From an uncultured candidatus Porisulfidus sp. (GTDB lineage Bacteria; Pseudomonadota; Gammaproteobacteria; Poriferisulfidales; Oxydemutatoraceae): a DNA stretch of 64,000 nucleotides. This document shows, piece by piece, positions 1 through 6,926 of the stretch (position 1 is the stretch's first letter; every line of letters starts with the position of its first letter). The DNA lies in assembly GCA_965215125.1 (NCBI GenBank), contig OZ244052.1, positions 448,001-512,000 on the forward strand, written 5' to 3'. The notes beneath the pieces are model-generated. The model saw only the letters and a program-made list of their open reading frames with translations, searched no databases and had not been told where the DNA came from. The position numbers and the translations under genes were made by a program.

Positions 1-1360
1 CCTCAAATCTTATCAACGACGACAACGCCGGGATAACCGTCAGTAAAATTTTATCGTCCGCCAACAGCTGCGGCATAACCGTCAATTCCAAACCGATCTG
101 CGCTTGCTCCAAACTCGCCGATACGCGCTGCTGATTATTTGCATCACCCGGTATAATCTCTTGACCACCGGCGTACGAAAAAGTCTCAACCGAATTGATA
201 CGCGCAACACCGCCGTTTGCGGCAATTAGATTGGTGCGATGCAATACTTGTATGTCTTGCTCTCTATCAAAATTATTAAGCAACACGTTAAAGTCGGTTC
301 CGTTGACCGAGAAATCGGAATCGATAACCCAACCCCCGGCGGTTAAACCGATGCCCGCTTCGCTACCACCCGATAAACCTACGCGTTCCGAACCGTCGAG
401 TGCCAAGAGATTAAACAATTTGACTTTGGCATCGTTATTCGCAACATCCAATATCAATACTTCCATCTGTACCAAGCGAGTAGACTTGTGTACCAACGGT
501 GTCAACCATTCGCTCAAGCGATTGATCTCTTGCAACGGACCCGAAGCAATCAATAAGCCGGTTCTTTGATCGGCTTGCACCCACGACAACTCATCGATAA
601 AATTGCTCCGGTCTTCCGCCTCAAAACCGTCGCTCGATGACTCAAAAACATCCTGCTCGCACAGACGTGTTTTCATGATGCAATTCGCTTGCTCTACCAA
701 CACCTGCCACGGTGTTTTATCGCCGTACTCCATGCGACTGGAAATAGAAAGTTCGCTGTCAACCGAGTGTCCGATATCACCACCGTTGCCGTCGTTGTCG
801 GTATTCGTCGCCGAGCCGAAATGAATTTGGTTGAGACCGGCGGAAGCAATCACCGCCAGATTCCAACGGCGGCTAACATACGCAGCGACTTCAACGATAT
901 TATTCGCCGGGTTTAAGCTAATCTCATAATTACTCAGACCTTCCAAATAAGCAAGAAAATCGGCAACCCGCATCTCATTACCGGTCCTTATGCGGATTAT
1001 TCGATCTAGATCCACCGAGACATCCTTCGCTCGCACAACGACGGCAAACGGTAAAGTTGCATGAATCGCCTCGCGTAAACTCAGCCGTGCATTCGTAATA
1101 TTTACCGAACGCAGTAGTTGTGACGGAACCGCCGCTTCGTTAATTTTGAAGTACGCCTCGGGCGGCGGACTTTGATAATGCGTCGCTTCTAGGTTCTCTT
1201 TGCCGATACGACGCTCACCCGTATCTACGGACACACACCCGGCTAAAACCGACACGGCTATCAAATAAAACAAAAATCTCGGATATCGAGTTTCTGCATT
1301 GCAGTGTCGTTGTTCGGAAACGACGTCAATCGCTATTGATAAATTAGTTTGCACCTGCAT
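1..1360 (-). CDS. Lipoprotein secretin (type II/III secretin superfamily; MshL/PilN/BfpB-like), 3' end outside window
   Basis: Hand translation, not in the ORF track because it runs off the edge: GAGGA RBS, then MQVQTN...FLFYLIAVSVLAGC (lipobox), ...TGLLIASGPLQEINRLSEWL...RLVQMEVLILDV...QIGLELTVMPQLLADDKILLTVIPALS (secretin-domain motifs). Alternative start at 1366. Confidence 0.8.
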   Translation of the reverse strand, partial: MQVQTNLSIAIDVVSEQRHCNAETRYPRFLFYLIAVSVLAGCVSVDTGERRIGKENLEATHYQSPPPEAYFKINEAAVPSQLLRSVNITNARLSLREAIHATLPFAVVVRAKDVSVDLDRIIRIRTGNEMRVADFLAYLEGLSNYEISLNPANNIVEVAAYVSRRWNLAVIASAGLNQIHFGSATNTDNDGNGGDIGHSVDSELSISSRMEYGDKTPWQVLVEQANCIMKTRLCEQDVFESSSDGFEAEDRSNFIDELSWVQADQRTGLLIASGPLQEINRLSEWLTPLVHKSTRLVQMEVLILDVANNDAKVKLFNLLALDGSERVGLSGGSEAGIGLTAGGWVIDSDFSVNGTDFNVLLNNFDREQDIQVLHRTNLIAANGGVARINSVETFSYAGGQEIIPGDANNQQRVSASLEQAQIGLELTVMPQLLADDKILLTVIPALSSLIRFE

Positions 1361-1459
1361 ATTCATTCCTCGTTAAGTCAATATGCCGATTTTGCCCGTA
1401 AATAAAGGTGATGAATCCGCTTTTGGATAAACGGTATTAAATATACGACGAATGACCAT

Positions 1460-1486
1460 CTGACAGGGTGGTCGTGGCATGTCTGC
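1460..1486 (+). repeat. Fragment of the dispersed palindromic repeat family, cut by the Mu-like terminus
   Basis: CTGACAGGGTGGTCGTGGCATGTCTGC is nearly identical to CTGACGGGGTGGTTGTGGCATGTCTGC at about 27266-27291. Confidence 0.75.
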
Positions 1487-1607
1487 TGTGCGGTGACAGA
1501 GAATTTGACAGAAGCGGTTTTTAACGGGATTTGACGGAATTTGGCGGTATTGCTTGCTTTCCGAGCGCGAAAGAAGTCGCGCGTGCTGTCACTGGCTCGC
1601 AACGGAG

Positions 1608-1620
1608 AATCAATGACTTA
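1608..1620 (+). promoter_or_regulatory. IHF-binding site in the Mu-like end
   Basis: AATCAATGACTTA is an exact match to WATCAANNNNTTR. Confidence 0.6.
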
Positions 1621-1627
1621 CGAGCCG

Positions 1628-1762
1628 AACTCGCGCGCAATAAATCGGCGAATTTTGGGGTATTAAACCTGTTTTAACCTTTGTTTAATTAGCTTTCAAA
1701 GGATTATTGAATGTGTATTTAACATAACGTAACTCGCGCGCTAACTCGCGCGAACTCGCGCG
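1628..1762 (+). repeat. AACTCGCGCG direct repeats (4 copies; variant AAGTCGCGCG near 1574) in the phage end region
   Basis: One copy near 1628 and three closely spaced copies at 1731-1762, followed by two TTTGTACAA motifs (1771-1798). Confidence 0.75.
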
Positions 1763-1814
1763 TACGAAACTTTGTACAAAAACGGCACTTTTGTACAAGT
1801 AATGTCCTGCTATT

Positions 1815-2300
1815 TTAGGCTAACGGCAGGCTGATAAATCGGGCAATAATCTCCTCAATTTCACGGCGACCTTCGTTTGATAATCCGAGAAACGGACGCG
1901 GCGGAATATCTCCCCAAGGAATAGGACGACCGTGCTTATCACTACCAAAGCTACCTCTCCCTGCACCAAACTGCTGCGTGGCTGCGTAGATAGCATTAGT
2001 GCCTGCGATGGCATAATCTTTACCGAAGGCTGATGTGATACTGTTTGCGAGCCGACCTGTTTGTTGTAGCTTTTGCCCCGGCCAATAGCCGGATTTCTCG
2101 CGCTGTTTGATTGTTGTGTCCGACAACGGCACCCATGTCTCACCATCCGGTGCTTGTTCAGATTGAAAGGCTTCCTCAATATTATCTACTAACACGCCGG
2201 CGATCGCTTGCATTGCAGGTGATAGGTCGTCACCGCGACGCGCCAAAAAGTTTAATGATTGCAGTGCCTTCTTGTCTTTGATTTTGATGTCTATTTTCAT
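1815..2300 (-). CDS. Phage virion morphogenesis protein (Mu gpG/gp31-like)
   Basis: DLSPAMQAIA...F..EQAPDGETW.PLS..T...L..TGRLANSI...GTNAIYAATQQFG...IPPRPFLGLS motifs; start moved to ATG 2300, which has a GGGAG RBS. Confidence 0.9.
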   Translation of the reverse strand: MKIDIKIKDKKALQSLNFLARRGDDLSPAMQAIAGVLVDNIEEAFQSEQAPDGETWVPLSDTTIKQREKSGYWPGQKLQQTGRLANSITSAFGKDYAIAGTNAIYAATQQFGAGRGSFGSDKHGRPIPWGDIPPRPFLGLSNEGRREIEEIIARFISLPLA

Positions 2301-2311
2301 TGTGGTATACT
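2284..2311 (+). promoter_or_regulatory. Putative sigma70 promoter antisense to the phage genes
   Basis: TTGATG (2284-2289), 16 nt, TATACT (2306-2311) with extended -10 TG. Confidence 0.55.
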
Positions 2312-2315
2312 CCCA

Positions 2316-2417
2316 GTGTGTGGCAAGCAAATGGCCGGATGAAATTAGGTTAGGCTTTAAGTTCATTCGGCTACGGCAAGCACCTAGCTGTTATGTGAGA
2401 TCCCGCTTGCCACGCAC
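2316..2417 (+). ncRNA. Putative structured sRNA (candidate RNA antitoxin) next to the MuF-nuclease stop codon
   Basis: Closing stem 2316-2328/2405-2417; inner stems 2333-2343/2362-2372 and 2373-2377/2387-2391. All contain G-U pairs that form only on the + strand. Promoter directly upstream. Confidence 0.55.
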
Positions 2418-2418
2418 C

Positions 2419-3759
2419 TTAATCATTTTTATAAAGTAAAGTTCCCTCTCGCTGATTGTCTGCATAGTTAGCATCTGCTGGTATAGCGTTCCAAAAAACA
2501 CTTGCATCTGTATTCTCTCGGGCAATTACTAGCATATTTTTTTCACCTCTAAATAATTTAATAAACCGGCGGCGAAAACTGCCATCAGTATATTCAGTCA
2601 ACCAAATTTCACTTGGGTTAGCCAATGTAGGGAGAATGAAGTTAGCATACCTTTCTCGGGCATCCGATCGTTTTCCAGATATATATTCTAATCCTTCCTC
2701 GCTGATAATAACTGGTTCTAGCGGTGTTTGAATGTTGCGAAAGTCGTTTTTTTTACCAAGCACAACCTCTGCAATTTGAGCATGAGCTAGAGTGGCTGAC
2801 TCTGCTCTAGGCAATAGCTTAGGAGCCTCTGCAAAAGCGAAGTCTGGAAGCTTTTTCACACTAGGTAATCCGTAGCTTGAATACTTTTTTTGACCGGGCT
2901 GTATTCTGGCGATACCTTTACCTCGACTACTAACCTGATCGGGTAATGCGCCGAGCTTATCCCACAAAGCCCACCTAGCACCGGGGTTATAATCAAAGCT
3001 CACATCAGGTGCCTCTATGAAGGTTTTGCCTAGCGCATCTCTACCTCGATACCTAACAGATAGTTGGGTTAGTGCTTCGCCTGTATATTTATCAACGCCG
3101 ACTTCTTGAGTGAAGGTCTCCAGATGTCCTTCACTCGTACCAACTTTCAATCCACGAGATTTAAGTTGTCGCTCGGTTAATGTCCGCACACGACACCTGC
3201 AATTCCAGCCGTTAGGTGGGTAGAAGGTATCCCAGAACGGATCGTCAAAACGGAAGACCTTACCGTGTAGCTTGCGGTGCGCCGGGCGAGTGCGAGAGTC
3301 CATCACGGCGAGGTATTGCCAGTATTGTCCTGCACCGATGCGCTGTGTTGCCAGTTCCACTTGTTGTTTGTATCTACCCGCACTATAAGCGGTGTTTAAG
3401 TTGGTTCTAAAGATGGTTTTGAGCCTATTCACGGAACCCAGTTGCACTAGTTCAGCGGTGCCGTCGGGAGCCTCTTTTACACGCTTGCCCCACCAACCGA
3501 GCTTCTGCAGTTTCGGCTGTAGTTCTTTCTTATAAGTATGGAAAGCGATACCTTCGGAGATTGCTTTATCGGTCTCATTACGGATAGCCCGCAATACTTC
3601 CATTTTGGTAGCTTTAGCAACCGTGAATGCTTTCGCATTAGCTTCGGCTAGCGACTCGTGCCAGTCCCATGTGATGCGATAGCCTTTGCTTCTAAAGTAT
3701 TCAATAGCATCACTCGGTTGGAGCTTAACCGCAAATCCGAGATCAACTGCTTCAGGCAT
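2419..3759 (-). CDS. Mu gpF-like phage head morphogenesis protein fused to a C-terminal PBECR2-type nuclease domain (MuF polymorphic toxin)
   Basis: N-terminal AFTVAK...RLKTIFRTNL..AY.AGRY...YLAVMDSRTRPAH..LHG...DDPFW...YPPNGWNCRCRV (MuF); C-terminal RERYANFILPTL.NPSEIW...RRRFIKLF...FWN...Y...QREG.LLY resembles PBECR2. Confidence 0.85.
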   Translation of the reverse strand: MPEAVDLGFAVKLQPSDAIEYFRSKGYRITWDWHESLAEANAKAFTVAKATKMEVLRAIRNETDKAISEGIAFHTYKKELQPKLQKLGWWGKRVKEAPDGTAELVQLGSVNRLKTIFRTNLNTAYSAGRYKQQVELATQRIGAGQYWQYLAVMDSRTRPAHRKLHGKVFRFDDPFWDTFYPPNGWNCRCRVRTLTERQLKSRGLKVGTSEGHLETFTQEVGVDKYTGEALTQLSVRYRGRDALGKTFIEAPDVSFDYNPGARWALWDKLGALPDQVSSRGKGIARIQPGQKKYSSYGLPSVKKLPDFAFAEAPKLLPRAESATLAHAQIAEVVLGKKNDFRNIQTPLEPVIISEEGLEYISGKRSDARERYANFILPTLANPSEIWLTEYTDGSFRRRFIKLFRGEKNMLVIARENTDASVFWNAIPADANYADNQREGTLLYKND

Positions 3760-4251
3760 TGAGCTGCCCCCAAGTATCTGCGGCGAATATGATTCTTGTC
3801 AATAAATCATGCAAACCCTCGCCATCCATGTCTTGATACCGCTCAGCGAGCAGACCTAAAATGTAATCGGGATTCTCGTCTATGGCATCAAGCAGAGGTT
3901 GCGCTAAAGATTCAGCTATCTGTTGCTGTGTATCATTATCTATGGATGATAGTACCGCCTCCAATGCTTCTTCCACATCGGCGGTCTCGGCAAAGTCCGA
4001 TGTTTGATTACCCGTCGGCGGCGCGAACGGTATTCCAACATCGTCTACTTCAATCTTATAAGTCTCTTCGACATGCTCTTTTGTCGGACGATAACCCATC
4101 TCAAATAGCACTTTATCTCGCTCCGCCTGTTCTTTGCCTGAGCTACGCTCAAATTGGCGACGCACCTTCGGCAAGGCAGCACCGGGATAATTCCATTCAA
4201 TCAGCCAACGCACGACCGAGCGCGTAAATGAGTCGTCCAACATCTGCTCTA
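3752..4251 (-). pseudogene. 3' fragment of Mu gp29-like portal protein (DUF935), 5' part removed at a repeat
   Basis: VRWLIEWNYPGAALPKV...LFEMGYRPT..HVEETY...IIFAADTWG; overlaps the gpF start as in Mu; the ORF-track start lies inside the palindromic repeat. Confidence 0.8.
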
Positions 4252-4320
4252 GTACATTCCCCTCCACAGGAGGGGAATAACCACCCCGTCAGGCACAGCC
4301 TGCCACCCTAAGGGCGGACA
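4252..4320 (+). repeat. Palindromic repeat island A, left part, including the left half of the REP hairpin hit by IS110
   Basis: GTACATTCCCCTCC-acag-GAGGGGAATAACCACCCCGTCAGGC-aca-GCCTGCCACCC then AAGGGCGGACA. Confidence 0.85.
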
Positions 4321-4334
4321 GATATATTAAACCG

Positions 4335-4560
4335 CAGCTTATTTGATATAAGATAAACGCTTAGGTAGATGCAGTGCCTAGGAAGTCGGAGGAGACACGC
4401 TGCAGGACGGACAAGGCATTAAAGCCTGGTTGCATGAAAAGCACTCCTCCGGCGTTATGACTATAGAGCTCGAAAGGCATCTTGGGACTTTAGATCTCGT
4501 ATTTATCTGTTTGAGCGGCGTAGTCATACTTTCCTAGACTTTGCTTGCTACCTATTATTT
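4335..4560 (+). ncRNA. IS110 bridge RNA (ends approximate)
   Basis: Target loop closed by 4385-4394/4444-4453 carries GGACGGACA (4405-4413) and TTGCATG (4430-4436); donor loop closed by 4456-4464/4520-4528 carries AAGGCATC (4474-4481) and TATCTG (4504-4509). Confidence 0.88.
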
Positions 4561-4594
4561 CATTAACTCAACAACCCATATGGAGAACATTATT

Positions 4595-5581
4595 ATGGAA
4601 AACAAACAACCCGTCACAATTGGCGTTGATGTCTCTAAAGAGACTTTAGAAACAGCTCTATTATTCACCGATAATAGTTTTGCCGAGCAGCAATTCAGTA
4701 ATGATGCCAAAGGCATTAAACAACTGTTATCTTGGGCTACCGAGCATGGTGCGCAACAGTGTCGCCTCTGCGTTGAGGCAACCGGCGGTTTTGAGCTAGA
4801 CCTGTGCATGGAAAGCTATGACCAACATCCCATCACGATTGTGCCACCTGTACAGGTCGCGAGCTACCGCAAAACGCTGGGTATGCGTAATAAAACCGAT
4901 GGCGTTGATGCGCAACTCATCGCACGCTTCGCATTTGCAGTCGGTGATATTCAAGACTGGGAACAGCCTACCGAAGCAGTATTCGCCTTGAGAGATACAC
5001 TGAAATGGCGCCGGCAATTAACCAAGTCCCATACGCAGTTAAGCAACTGTGCAAAGACGCTGCGCAGTATGCAGCTCAAAAAGAAGGCAGCTGCAGAACT
5101 CGCTCACCTCCAGAAGCAAATCCATGAGTGTGACGCCTTACTTTACGAAATCATCGCTGAAGACGAACAACTCACACAGCAGTATCAATTGCTCTGCTCT
5201 ATTACTGGAATCGGAACTCAAACCGCAGCCACCCTATGTGCAGCTTTTGATGATAATACGTTTCAACACCCAAAGCAACTTGCCGCCTATATCGGCATCA
5301 CTCCGATGCGCAAGCAATCCGGCAACTACGAGGCGAAGGCGCACATCTCTAAAATTGGCGATGCACACCTGCGCACCGCACTATTTATGGCGGCACTCTC
5401 GGCTCGGGTTCATAACCCAATCGTCCGTGCGTTCGCCGACCAGTTAAGCCGGCGGCGTCCGGATTTAACCAAAAAGCAGGTTATTGTTGCTTGCGCCCAT
5501 AAACTGACGCGTATCATTTACGGAATACTCAAGCACAAGAAACCGTTTGACCCGAATTATTGTTGCGTATCTGCGTCCTAA
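4595..5581 (+). CDS. IS110-family recombinase (DEDD RuvC-like domain plus Tnp domain)
   Basis: IGVDVSK, CVEATGG, KTDGVDA, SITGIG, AAYIGITP..KQSG, ISKIGD.HLR..LFMAA, VACAHKL; start moved to ATG 4595 (GGAGA RBS). Confidence 0.95.
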   Translation: MENKQPVTIGVDVSKETLETALLFTDNSFAEQQFSNDAKGIKQLLSWATEHGAQQCRLCVEATGGFELDLCMESYDQHPITIVPPVQVASYRKTLGMRNKTDGVDAQLIARFAFAVGDIQDWEQPTEAVFALRDTLKWRRQLTKSHTQLSNCAKTLRSMQLKKKAAAELAHLQKQIHECDALLYEIIAEDEQLTQQYQLLCSITGIGTQTAATLCAAFDDNTFQHPKQLAAYIGITPMRKQSGNYEAKAHISKIGDAHLRTALFMAALSARVHNPIVRAFADQLSRRRPDLTKKQVIVACAHKLTRIIYGILKHKKPFDPNYCCVSAS

Positions 5582-5632
5582 ATTGATACTCAGAAGAGAA
5601 GATAGAAAAAGATAAAAAACGAATAAAATAAC

Positions 5633-5638
5633 TTGACT
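5633..5638 (+). promoter_or_regulatory. Outward-facing -35 box of the IS110 junction promoter (pairs with -10 TATATT at 4323-4328 in the circle)
   Basis: TTGACT + 13 nt + CA + GA gives a 17-nt spacer after circularisation. Confidence 0.8.
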
Positions 5639-5651
5639 TTGAATAAGGCAT

Positions 5652-5695
5652 CATGCAAGTCCGCCCCTACAAGGAGGGGAATAAACCGTTCCTAC
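5652..5695 (+). repeat. Repeat island A, right part
   Basis: CATGCAAGTCCGCCCCTAC followed by AAGGAGGGG..AATAAACCGTTCCTAC. Confidence 0.8.
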
Positions 5696-5744
5696 ACATG
5701 GTTTGCATAATTGGGTGACACGTGGCGTTGTATAATAGCAACAC

Positions 5745-6926
5745 ATGGAACATCATGCCTCTACACTTATTATCCCCTTTTTGATATTCACCGGTGCGGC
5801 GGTGATGGCAACTTTTGCCTTATATGCAAGGCAGGCTATGTTGGTTGCTTATATCATTCTCGGGCTATTGCTGGGACCTGCGTTATTTAAGGTGGTGGAC
5901 GGCGGCGAGGAAGCAATGCACATCGCCTCGGATATAGGCATTGTTTTATTGCTTTTCTTGCTGGGCTTGGATCTGTCTCCTATTAAATTGATAAAAGTCG
6001 TGCGTGCAATCGCAACACCTACGCTGGCGAGTTGTGTCGTGTTTTCTTTACCCGGTATCGCAATCGGTTATATACTCGGTTTTGATGCCGTGTCTATAAT
6101 GATCTTGGCTATCGCAATGATGTTCTCCAGTACTATCATCGGGATTAAGCTATTGCCTACGACGGTGTTACACCATAAACCGACCGGCGAAATTATTATC
6201 AGTATATTGTTGTTGCAGGACTTGATTGCAATTCTGATCATACTTGGTCTAGGGCTGTTCTACAGCGGCGGCAGCGATTTTCATATATCGGTACCTTTTA
6301 TCAAGCTATTGCTACTCCCGGTCATGGTCGGTCTTGCCTATCTATTGCAAAAATATCTGCTCGTCGGACTTTTGATGCGCTTCGACAAAATCAAAGAATA
6401 TGTTTTCCTATTGATGATAGGTTGGTGTTTCGGCATCGCACAACTTACCGCATGGTTAGGCTTGTCGTACGAAATCGGCGCGTTCATCGCCGGCGTGTTA
6501 ATGGCTACTCACCCGATTGCAATCTATGTGGCGGACTCCTTAAAACCGTTGCGAGACTTTTTTATGGTTATTTTCTTCTTCACGCTGGGCAGTAGCATCG
6601 CACCGGGGTCGGTCGGCCGGATATGGGTACCTGCCTTGATATTAGCGGGCGTACTACTGATATTAAAACCGTTGGTCTTCGAGTGGTTACTCAGTCGCGC
6701 CGGTGAGGAAAAAACAAGAGCAAGAGAGGTCGGGTTTAGGCTGGGACAGGGCAGCGAATTCTCACTGTTAATCATTGCACTGGCGACGCAGCTCGGCATC
6801 GCCGAAAAACCTGCAATAGACTTGATTAAAACGACTATGCTGATAACGTTTATGGTGTCGCCCTACTTGATTATCGCAAAATACCCTACTCCGGTTGCGA
6901 TAGACGATCGCTTACGCCGCGACTAG
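5745..6926 (+). CDS. Cation:proton antiporter (CPA2/Kef membrane component)
   Basis: About 12 TM segments; DIGIVLLLFLLGL, FSSTIIGIKLL, LLQD, GAFIAG, PLRDFF, LGQGSEFS. Confidence 0.9.
   Translation: MEHHASTLIIPFLIFTGAAVMATFALYARQAMLVAYIILGLLLGPALFKVVDGGEEAMHIASDIGIVLLLFLLGLDLSPIKLIKVVRAIATPTLASCVVFSLPGIAIGYILGFDAVSIMILAIAMMFSSTIIGIKLLPTTVLHHKPTGEIIISILLLQDLIAILIILGLGLFYSGGSDFHISVPFIKLLLLPVMVGLAYLLQKYLLVGLLMRFDKIKEYVFLLMIGWCFGIAQLTAWLGLSYEIGAFIAGVLMATHPIAIYVADSLKPLRDFFMVIFFFTLGSSIAPGSVGRIWVPALILAGVLLILKPLVFEWLLSRAGEEKTRAREVGFRLGQGSEFSLLIIALATQLGIAEKPAIDLIKTTMLITFMVSPYLIIAKYPTPVAIDDRLRRD

Follow-up and report, generated by a model that had tools for sequence, protein, structure and literature searches.

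What is encoded in the 118 nucleotides (nt) that separate the genes F and G of a Mu-like module carried by an uncultured candidatus Porisulfidus sp.? We addressed this question in a stretch of 64,000 nt (contig OZ244052.1, positions 448,001 to 512,000), called the window below, to whose numbering all coordinates refer unless another sequence is named. F encodes a MuF minor head protein that ends in a PBECR2 domain, a predicted endoribonuclease, and G encodes a virion morphogenesis or tail completion protein. An earlier note, made from the sequence alone, had proposed that the spacer between them holds a promoter-driven, structured RNA antisense to both genes, which takes the place of an immunity gene. 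The RNA itself is borne out by a conserved and covarying fold, by a promoter and a terminator, and by its presence in modules that have no G. As to its role we are more tentative: with slightly more doubt than confidence, we propose that the small RNA gene at 2316-2417 (plus strand) is the cognate partner that restrains the PBECR2 domain as an RNA immunity factor or antitoxin, and, as part of the same tentative reading, that it is the local form of a widespread and hitherto undescribed kind of RNA that follows PBECR2-type MuF domains.

A discrete antisense unit between F and G

A promoter, a folded RNA and a terminator define a discrete unit on the strand opposite to F and G. Relatives of this RNA in the same bacterial family belong to two sequence types, type 1, which includes the window copy and was analysed as a set of 10 copies (9 distinct), and type 2, analysed as 8 copies. 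The parts of the unit and the two genes that flank it are the following.

2284-2289, plus strand: -35-like hexamer TTGATG, inside the first G codons of the other strand; position kept in 9 of 10 type-1 copies
2303-2311, plus strand: extended -10 box TGgTATACT; TATACT in 10 of 10 type-1 and 7 of 8 type-2 copies
2316-2417, plus strand: small RNA core of 102 nt, from the 5' to the 3' arm of the closing helix P1, defined by the fold and the type-1 alignment; slot and layout match the wider family described below
2316-2328, plus strand: 5' arm of P1, pairing with 2405-2417; 96.6% of cells paired in the 9 distinct copies, 2 pairs changed on both sides
2333-2343, plus strand: 5' arm of helix P2, pairing with 2362-2372; 89.9% of cells paired, 2 pairs changed on both sides, several G-U variants
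2349-2354, plus strand: pseudoknot strand GUUAGG in the P2 loop, pairing with 2383-2388 (CCUAGC); invariant in types 1 and 2
2373-2391, plus strand: helix 3 of the earlier note (a weak P3), overlapping the pseudoknot strand; 62.2% paired in relatives, no pair changed on both sides
2405-2417, plus strand: 3' arm of P1, ending one base short of the complement of the F stop codon (from sequence and type-1 alignment)
2418-2432, plus strand: U-rich tail CUUAAUCAUUUUUAU after P1, a likely terminator tract by sequence reading and the complement of the last F codons
2419-3759, minus strand: F, MuF minor head protein with C-terminal PBECR2 (Pfam match at 2428-2730), 446 amino acids (aa), stop codon at 2419-2421
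1815-2300, minus strand: G, virion morphogenesis or tail completion protein, matching Phage_tail_S

A separate protein gene in the gap is unlikely. Mechanically called open reading frames (ORFs) cross the 118 nt, but no frame is conserved among close copies, where 1-nt insertions or deletions at alignment columns 48 and 110 disrupt every one of them, so the spacer is probably without a gene of its own, as had been claimed. There is likewise no gene for an immunity protein directly downstream of F, since G, a member of a virion protein family, comes next; its start codon, ATG, lies at 2298-2300 and is preceded by GGGAG (read in the sequence).

The positions given in the earlier note are all correct. 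The spacer folds at -47.0 kcal/mol on the plus strand (z -3.77), a value that none of 200 shuffled sequences reached, compared with -35.5 kcal/mol on the minus strand (z -1.44), where 22 of 200 shuffles folded as well; the fold thus favours the plus strand, as predicted. All three helices described in that note sit where they had been placed, helix 3 being formed in the window copy by 2373-2377 with 2387-2391. Only the first two, however, are conserved. Helix 3 was sought across the 9 distinct type-1 relatives and is absent as a conserved element, three of its five pairs departing solely through unpaired cells, and in relatives a pseudoknot stands in its place.

The promoter TTGATG-16-TATACT, with its TG, spans 2284-2311 at the 5' end of the RNA, and the -10 box is conserved in relatives. 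Because a scan of 3.2 kb returned 9 such sites against 4.3 +/- 2.3 expected, a promoter-like site alone is weak evidence. In locus L157, which has no G, TATACT is kept despite unrelated upstream sequence, and the -35-like hexamer reads TTGATA, one base nearer to the -10 box (alignment read by eye).

The spacer resembles no catalogued RNA. Rfam 15 gave no family near its gathering score in 1300-3000, where there were three chance-level matches only (E >= 1.5). A transfer RNA (tRNA) identity was rejected: ARAGORN called no tRNA in 1-6000, Rfam matched none in 1300-3000, and neither finds a cloverleaf with D and T arms. We likewise rejected a repetitive extragenic palindrome or a miniature inverted-repeat transposable element, since the spacer has one other copy in the genome, again adjoining a PBECR2 domain.

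Conservation and strand in close relatives

The PBECR2 domain was present in 9 of 53 genomes of the order, G000 included, and all nine belong to the family of the window's organism. Some family genomes have up to 10 domain matches, many of them solo or truncated ORFs. In type 1, P1 and P2 reach the pairing values listed above with 4 pairs changed on both sides, compared with 27-38% paired in slid controls, and a U-G wobble in P1 is kept in 8 of the 9 distinct copies. The helix-2 loop GGUUAGG is complementary to the downstream segment CCUAAC (CCUAGC in the window), and both are invariant. Type 2 differs in sequence and keeps the same plan, a closing helix, a hairpin with a GUUAGG loop and a second hairpin with a CCUAAC loop; its pairs are formed in 98.3% of cells, 7 of them changed on both sides, and CUUUUUA follows the closing helix in 7 of 8 copies.

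The pattern of wobble pairs speaks for the same strand. The earlier note had argued that G-U pairs, which would be A-C mismatches on the messenger RNA (mRNA) strand, mark the plus strand as the functional one, and across the clade this stands: helices 1 and 2 of type 1 have 27 G-U cells at 7 pair positions and 2 A-C cells (counted by eye, alignment A8), and the counts are 13 and 3 in type 2 and 46 and 19 in the wider family. It does not stand for every copy, since in copy C of the same genome one change favours the sense strand and the sense-strand fold is slightly better.

A search of 19 family genomes with the type-1 RNA gave 10 matches, 9 of which adjoin a domain match, the tenth being degenerate and without a -10 box. 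Same-genus genomes contain arrays of solo 173-aa PBECR2 ORFs or truncated domain ends, each followed by the RNA. The array sites are G034:C1:622933-624310, G035:C2:1127794-1133050 and G036:C1:536801-538745, with RNA of type 1 or 2, some of them convergent. Copy D and L157 show that the RNA also occurs where G is missing, so that its association is with the PBECR2 domain and not with G.

The domain and the RNA form one cassette

The C-terminal domain occurs four times in this genome, in copies that we call A to D.

Copy A: the window; RNA type 1
Copy B: full F and G; RNA type 2
Copy C: F residues 286-446, the spacer and the first 45 G codons; RNA type 1, 84% identical to A
Copy D: intact solo ORF of 173 aa (PBECR2, E 4e-20), without G; RNA type 2
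2291-2940, no strand: divergent cassette of C-terminal domain and RNA, A compared with B, from the identity profile

Copies A and B are 88-100% identical over 4080-2941 and again over 2290-1811, versus 48-72% across 2940-2291. The edges of this swap fall at the start of the domain on one side and at the promoter on the other, so that an exchangeable C-terminal domain lies behind a conserved MuF N-terminal part, and since the divergence is confined to 2291-2940 the domain and the RNA have been exchanged together. Comparison of these copies and of the arrays indicates that domain and RNA make up a two-part cassette, which is passed on, exchanged and left behind as a whole.

The modules of A and B share their outer limits (about 1487-4099) and both adjoin transposase genes. 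Copy B (G000:C1:2052524-2055127) comprises a portal fragment, F, the spacer and G, and lies between trpF and trpB beside a transposase fragment. In the window, the 5' side of F has just the last 171 aa of a Mu portal protein (3752-4267) and then an IS110 transposase, and a secretin gene sits beyond G. The F-RNA-G module is isolated in this genome, with no other virion genes nearby, and the label 'virion-associated' that the earlier note had given to the nuclease does not apply here. F and G are intact in both isolated copies, which may reflect domestication or an addictive module.

Several further features of this neighbourhood were seen. The IS110 element has at least nine additional full or partial copies in the genome, and immediately before the window copy a repeat of about 50 nt (4254-4320) has about 45 further matches in the 2.2-Mb genome. 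Between G and the secretin gene lie 430 nt of non-coding sequence; homology to copy B begins within it, near 1487, and at 1729-1760 AACTCGCGCG-like direct repeats make a terminator-like palindrome.

A wider family in phages and prophages

Using the four C-terminal domains of this genome as queries we collected 43 loci, 21 on genome contigs and 22 on viral contigs, from Beta-, Gamma- and Deltaproteobacteria, Nitrospirota, Ignavibacteriales and one cyanobacterium. Nearly all of them have a closing helix of 7-14 base pairs (bp), a few bases from the stop codon and spanning 90-110 nt, the sequence of which differs in every locus. MAFFT alignments of all elements were structurally wrong and were left unused, and a simple helix parser served as a guide only. 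We relied instead on covariance models (R1 and R2), seeded with five sequences and rebuilt from 17, which detected 23 loci at E < 1e-5, all antisense and immediately past the PBECR2 stop codon; with the filters off 5 additional loci were found (E 4e-6 to 0.07), giving 28 in all.

The layout of this RNA, which is roughly 100 nt long and occupies the slot in about 30 unrelated phages and prophages, is that of a closing helix and two hairpins with kissing loops. In 22 aligned members 90.3% of cells are paired, versus 57.7% after shuffling and 41-48% in slid controls, all 27 nested pairs show changes on both sides, and there are 188 compensatory cells versus 56 in shuffled alignments; none of 500 shuffles reached the observed values. 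The loop-loop pseudoknot, which was outside the model, is 84.9% paired, and both sides have changed in 6 of its 6 pairs. Three junctions have conserved unpaired bases, CGNGA, UGAAG and GAC. Rfam has no family at the RNA in 10 typical loci.

The signals at the two ends are shared as well. A -10 box was scored where 4 or more of the 6 positions matched, A2 and T6 among them, at 3-17 nt upstream of the RNA. On the antisense strand 24 of 27 members have one, 7 of them with TG, versus 9 of 27 (none with TG) in mirror control windows and 15% in random windows. Several members have a full TTGACA-17-TATAAT promoter or a near match. The conserved structure and antisense promoter that the earlier note had proposed to look for downstream of homologues are therefore both present. 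In relatives the 16 nt past the closing helix contain 6.7 T versus a background of 3.8, and 2 members have a standard terminator hairpin in addition. The U-tract is frequently the complement of a Lys-Lys-stop ending, and in L112, L111, L120, L130 and other loci the -35 box TTGACA is the complement of the first G codons (ATG TCA A..). Since the -35 box complements the start of G and the U-tract the end of F, opposite-strand coding sequence contains the two ends of the RNA unit.

We also searched in the other direction, from the RNA to the protein. The junction motif alone occurs at 13 places in the viral contigs, 8 of which adjoin an opposite-strand PBECR2-like ORF, 5 already known from the model and 3 new (model E 1e-13 to 2e-22). 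The other 5 places, with neither domain nor model hit, were set aside as chance matches.

The window RNA shares the position of this family, directly past the PBECR2 stop and on the opposite strand, and its layout: P1 spans 102 nt (about 95-110 in the family), and P2 and a 6-bp pseudoknot are present together with a weak P3. It likewise has its own sigma-70 promoter and U-rich tract.

A tRNA-like RNA in the same slot

Mu-like viral loci gathered with the whole F protein as query have F and G either abutting or separated by 88-190 nt, and the long spacers encode an antisense tRNA-like RNA preceded by a sigma-70 promoter. Rfam tRNA (RF00005) scores at threshold in 4 of 10 loci and in none of 7 further spacers, and ARAGORN calls a tRNA in 2 of 16 viral loci tested. 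A 5-bp stem with a TTCRANN loop, the T-arm motif, is found antisense in 24 of 26 distinct spacers and in the sense direction in none of the 26. The acceptor, D and T arms are standard, and an odd hairpin takes the place of the anticodon arm, in one example a hairpin capped by UUCG; judged from these sequences, such RNAs could hardly decode. Examples of the antisense gene between F and G are L008:4332-4409 (minus strand), L059:4329-4401 (minus strand), L012 and L023, with 20 other viral loci.

The F proteins at these loci carry MuF_C, which Iyer et al. (2017, PMC5512222) describe as a PBECR domain that is inactive in Mu gp30 and likely RNA-binding. By analogy, these parallel tRNA-like genes suggest that PBECR-type domains may recognise tRNA-shaped RNA. 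In Mannheimia phage NC_028766 a 150-nt gap between F and G is unannotated, and Rfam gave no tRNA match there. A Mu-like phage within an E. coli Stx2c phage has 134 nt (LC727881.1, 57015-57148) that are 73.5% identical to the F end and tRNA-like region of L059, and E. coli Mu-like prophages may thus carry an RNA of this sister class.

The PBECR2 domain of F

Pfam places Phage_Mu_F at F residues 58-191 (E 9e-30) and PBECR2 at residues 344-444 (E 8e-22), in keeping with the earlier claim that F ends in a PBECR2-like domain. Ten residues are invariant in 40 aligned domains (R87, E88, N92, P96, L98, P101, E103, R115, N143 and R156). That the domain be confirmed by profile or structure had been suggested in the note. 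The predicted structure is confident (predicted local distance difference test 94.5), with a helix followed by five strands, but a fold search of the PDB found no neighbour at E <= 0.001, and a profile search of PDB sequences gave nothing below E 0.06. Helix-then-strands is the order given for the fold in PMC5512222, and the putative BECR assignment rests on this order in the model and on the Pfam match. At alignment position 78 F has Tyr 359 (given as window 3526-3528; first row of alignment A9), and L122 has Arg.

A candidate RNA antitoxin and its rivals

How would such a unit work? We propose that host sigma-70 RNA polymerase would initiate at the extended -10 promoter (2303-2311), which overlaps the ribosome-binding region of G, and that transcription would head away from G and stop at the closing helix and the U-rich tract overlapping the F stop codon. 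The product would be an RNA of about 100-115 nt, closed by a helix of 13 bp and containing a long hairpin whose loop forms a 6-bp pseudoknot with the segment that follows. This RNA would bind the PBECR2 domain and prevent the predicted RNase from harming the cell in which it is encoded, and with a constitutive promoter it would also protect a lysogen, or a cell with a remnant only. Fold, conservation, strand signals and linkage to the domain are direct observations; transcription, binding and inhibition are what we infer from them, and the antitoxin or immunity role in particular comes from the linkage and the behaviour of the cassette. We prefer an immunity role on four grounds: RNA and promoter are intact even behind truncated domain stubs, the promoter is of the constitutive kind, the cassette is swapped as toxin-immunity pairs are, and another PBECR family is likewise followed in this slot by an RNA of its own, one of tRNA shape.

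A number of results weigh against this interpretation. The module in the window is not part of an intact prophage. The near-invariant His of the domain (H78) is Tyr in copies A and C, so nuclease activity here is uncertain and the domain may not be an active toxin. Domains that share an RNA type are only a little more similar, with 68% between A and C and 57% between B and D versus 50-54% across types. The wider-family model gives no hit in the window (R2, E <= 10) and, with filters off, none in the other copies of this genome or in 12 other loci of the bacterial family; because the model fails to detect this clade, the link of the window RNA to the wider family rests on position, layout and protein partner. 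The covariation figures for that family are flattering, since alignment A7 is model-fitted and its sequences are related. Spacer-less MuF_C loci exist, among them phage Mu itself, which has the domain and no spacer between F and G, so a PBECR-type C-terminal domain is not always in need of such an RNA. Finally, linkage alone cannot separate an inhibitor from a cofactor or an antisense regulator, which fit it equally.

Among the alternatives, an antisense regulator appears unlikely, although the geometry speaks for it: the RNA is convergent to F and fully complementary to the mRNA from the F stop to the G ribosome-binding site, its promoter overlaps the start of G in many loci, and its 3' arm often contains the stop codon of the domain ORF. 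It would then pair with the late F-G mRNA, cleaving it or blocking translation of G and so tuning or silencing F and G, the fold serving stability and fast pairing instead of protein binding. The conserved unpaired junction bases and the covarying pseudoknot, however, exceed the needs of a pairing RNA, the RNA and its promoter are kept where G is gone or only a domain stub is left, and the tRNA-shaped RNA of the MuF_C slot, with standard D and T arms, points to recognition of shape. A function on the mRNA strand, as an intercistronic processing site, a stabiliser or a translational coupler of G with the antisense promoter as a by-product, strikes us as very improbable. The minus strand does form the closing helix, and copy C leans to the sense strand as described above, but G-U exceeds A-C in all three alignments, the promoter and U-tract are conserved solely on the antisense strand, the promoter is retained in modules without G, and the T-arm motif of the sister class is confined to the antisense strand.

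It is distinctly doubtful, too, that the RNA is a cofactor or cargo of the head protein, that is, an assembly or packaging RNA at the portal or part of an injected ribonucleoprotein, whether as a ring formed through the two complementary loops in the manner of phi29 packaging RNA (pRNA) or as a mimic of tRNA that draws off host defences which cut tRNA. The family names mark MuF proteins as head proteins, RNA binding is predicted for the inactive Mu domain in PMC5512222, the two complementary loops covary, as would fit pairing within or between molecules, and the sister slot holds a tRNA-like RNA with a replaced anticodon arm. The persistence of the RNA in modules without any virion genes, here and in related genomes, tells against it, one would not expect a late assembly factor to have a constitutive sigma-70 promoter, and phage Mu has the domain without the RNA. 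A more far-reaching form, which we judge quite improbable, is that PBECR-type MuF domains are RNA-loading modules whose own tRNA-shaped or three-way RNA would become part of the head and be injected together with the DNA, as a decoy against host tRNA-cutting defences or as a pRNA-like portal ring; were this so, Mu-like phages would deliver a small RNA as part of the virion. The three-way-junction layout with a loop-loop contact recalls small ribozymes. With its conserved junction bases it could indicate a self-cleaving ribozyme or another catalytic or ligand-binding phage RNA unrelated to the adjoining domain, an explanation to which we give hardly any weight, since there is no Rfam ribozyme or riboswitch match in the window or in 10 typical loci and the tight cassette linkage to one protein domain would be left unexplained.

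Relation to known systems

If the RNA is the restraining partner of the domain, it shares traits with several known systems and coincides with none. In type III toxin-antitoxin systems (ToxIN, CptIN, TenpIN) a tandem-repeat RNA lies upstream of the toxin on the same strand and is cut into units by the toxin. As there, a structured RNA would neutralise a neighbouring predicted endoribonuclease, and the pair sits on mobile elements. Unlike there, the window has a single RNA unit without repeats, downstream and convergent, with its own promoter and terminator, and on the protein side there is a C-terminal domain belonging to a phage head protein; the arrangement is thus not of the classical type III form that the earlier note had cited as precedent. 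In type I pairs such as txpA/RatA and bsrG/SR4, an antisense RNA runs convergent to the toxin gene and overlaps its mRNA at the 3' end; the toxins themselves are small membrane peptides. Both arrangements share a small convergent RNA that has a constitutive promoter and is complementary to the toxin mRNA in its 3' part, whereas a covarying three-way junction and pseudoknot distinguish the RNA described here. The phi29 packaging RNA, which acts near the portal, is likewise a phage RNA with a three-way junction, and its two complementary loops covary from relative to relative; our RNA differs in having no sequence or Rfam match, belonging to another phage group, being tied to MuF and persisting without virion genes. 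As for tRNAs and tRNA-like phage RNAs, the RNA of the MuF_C-type slot scores as tRNA, whereas ARAGORN and Rfam find the window RNA not to be tRNA-like.

Contact-dependent inhibition and Rhs loci contain orphan toxin/immunity cassettes, and the arrays of truncated C-terminal fragments, each with an intact partner gene, are alike in this; here the partner is an RNA, and the arrays are distant from a full-length gene. In gene order there is a likeness to the MuF polymorphic toxins, which, in the available parts of their descriptions (Jamet et al. 2017, PMC5576092; Iyer et al. 2017, PMC5512222), have a MuF N-terminus, an exchangeable C-terminal domain and a partner gene directly downstream. In our case, too, the cassette is swapped between otherwise near-identical copies, but an RNA gene and no protein gene occupies the partner slot. 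The same parts of these two papers name no RNA partner for MuF toxins, and in the literature, as far as its accessible text extends and supplements aside (for example the motif list of PMC5737381), there is no description of a PBECR2-linked RNA or of the tRNA-like one.

What the RNA means for MuF-PBECR proteins

Tailed phages very commonly encode MuF-PBECR proteins, for which no partner has been named. With a conserved RNA gene attached to the domain, there is an RNA-protein pair that can be tested, and if E. coli Mu-like prophages carry the sister-class RNA they would provide a tractable host for such tests. The finding adds a class of structured RNA with a covarying pseudoknot that is absent from Rfam, and the gap between F and G, left blank in phage annotations such as NC_028766, holds a gene. 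This may be the first case in which an RNA replaces the immunity protein of a polymorphic-toxin-like cassette.

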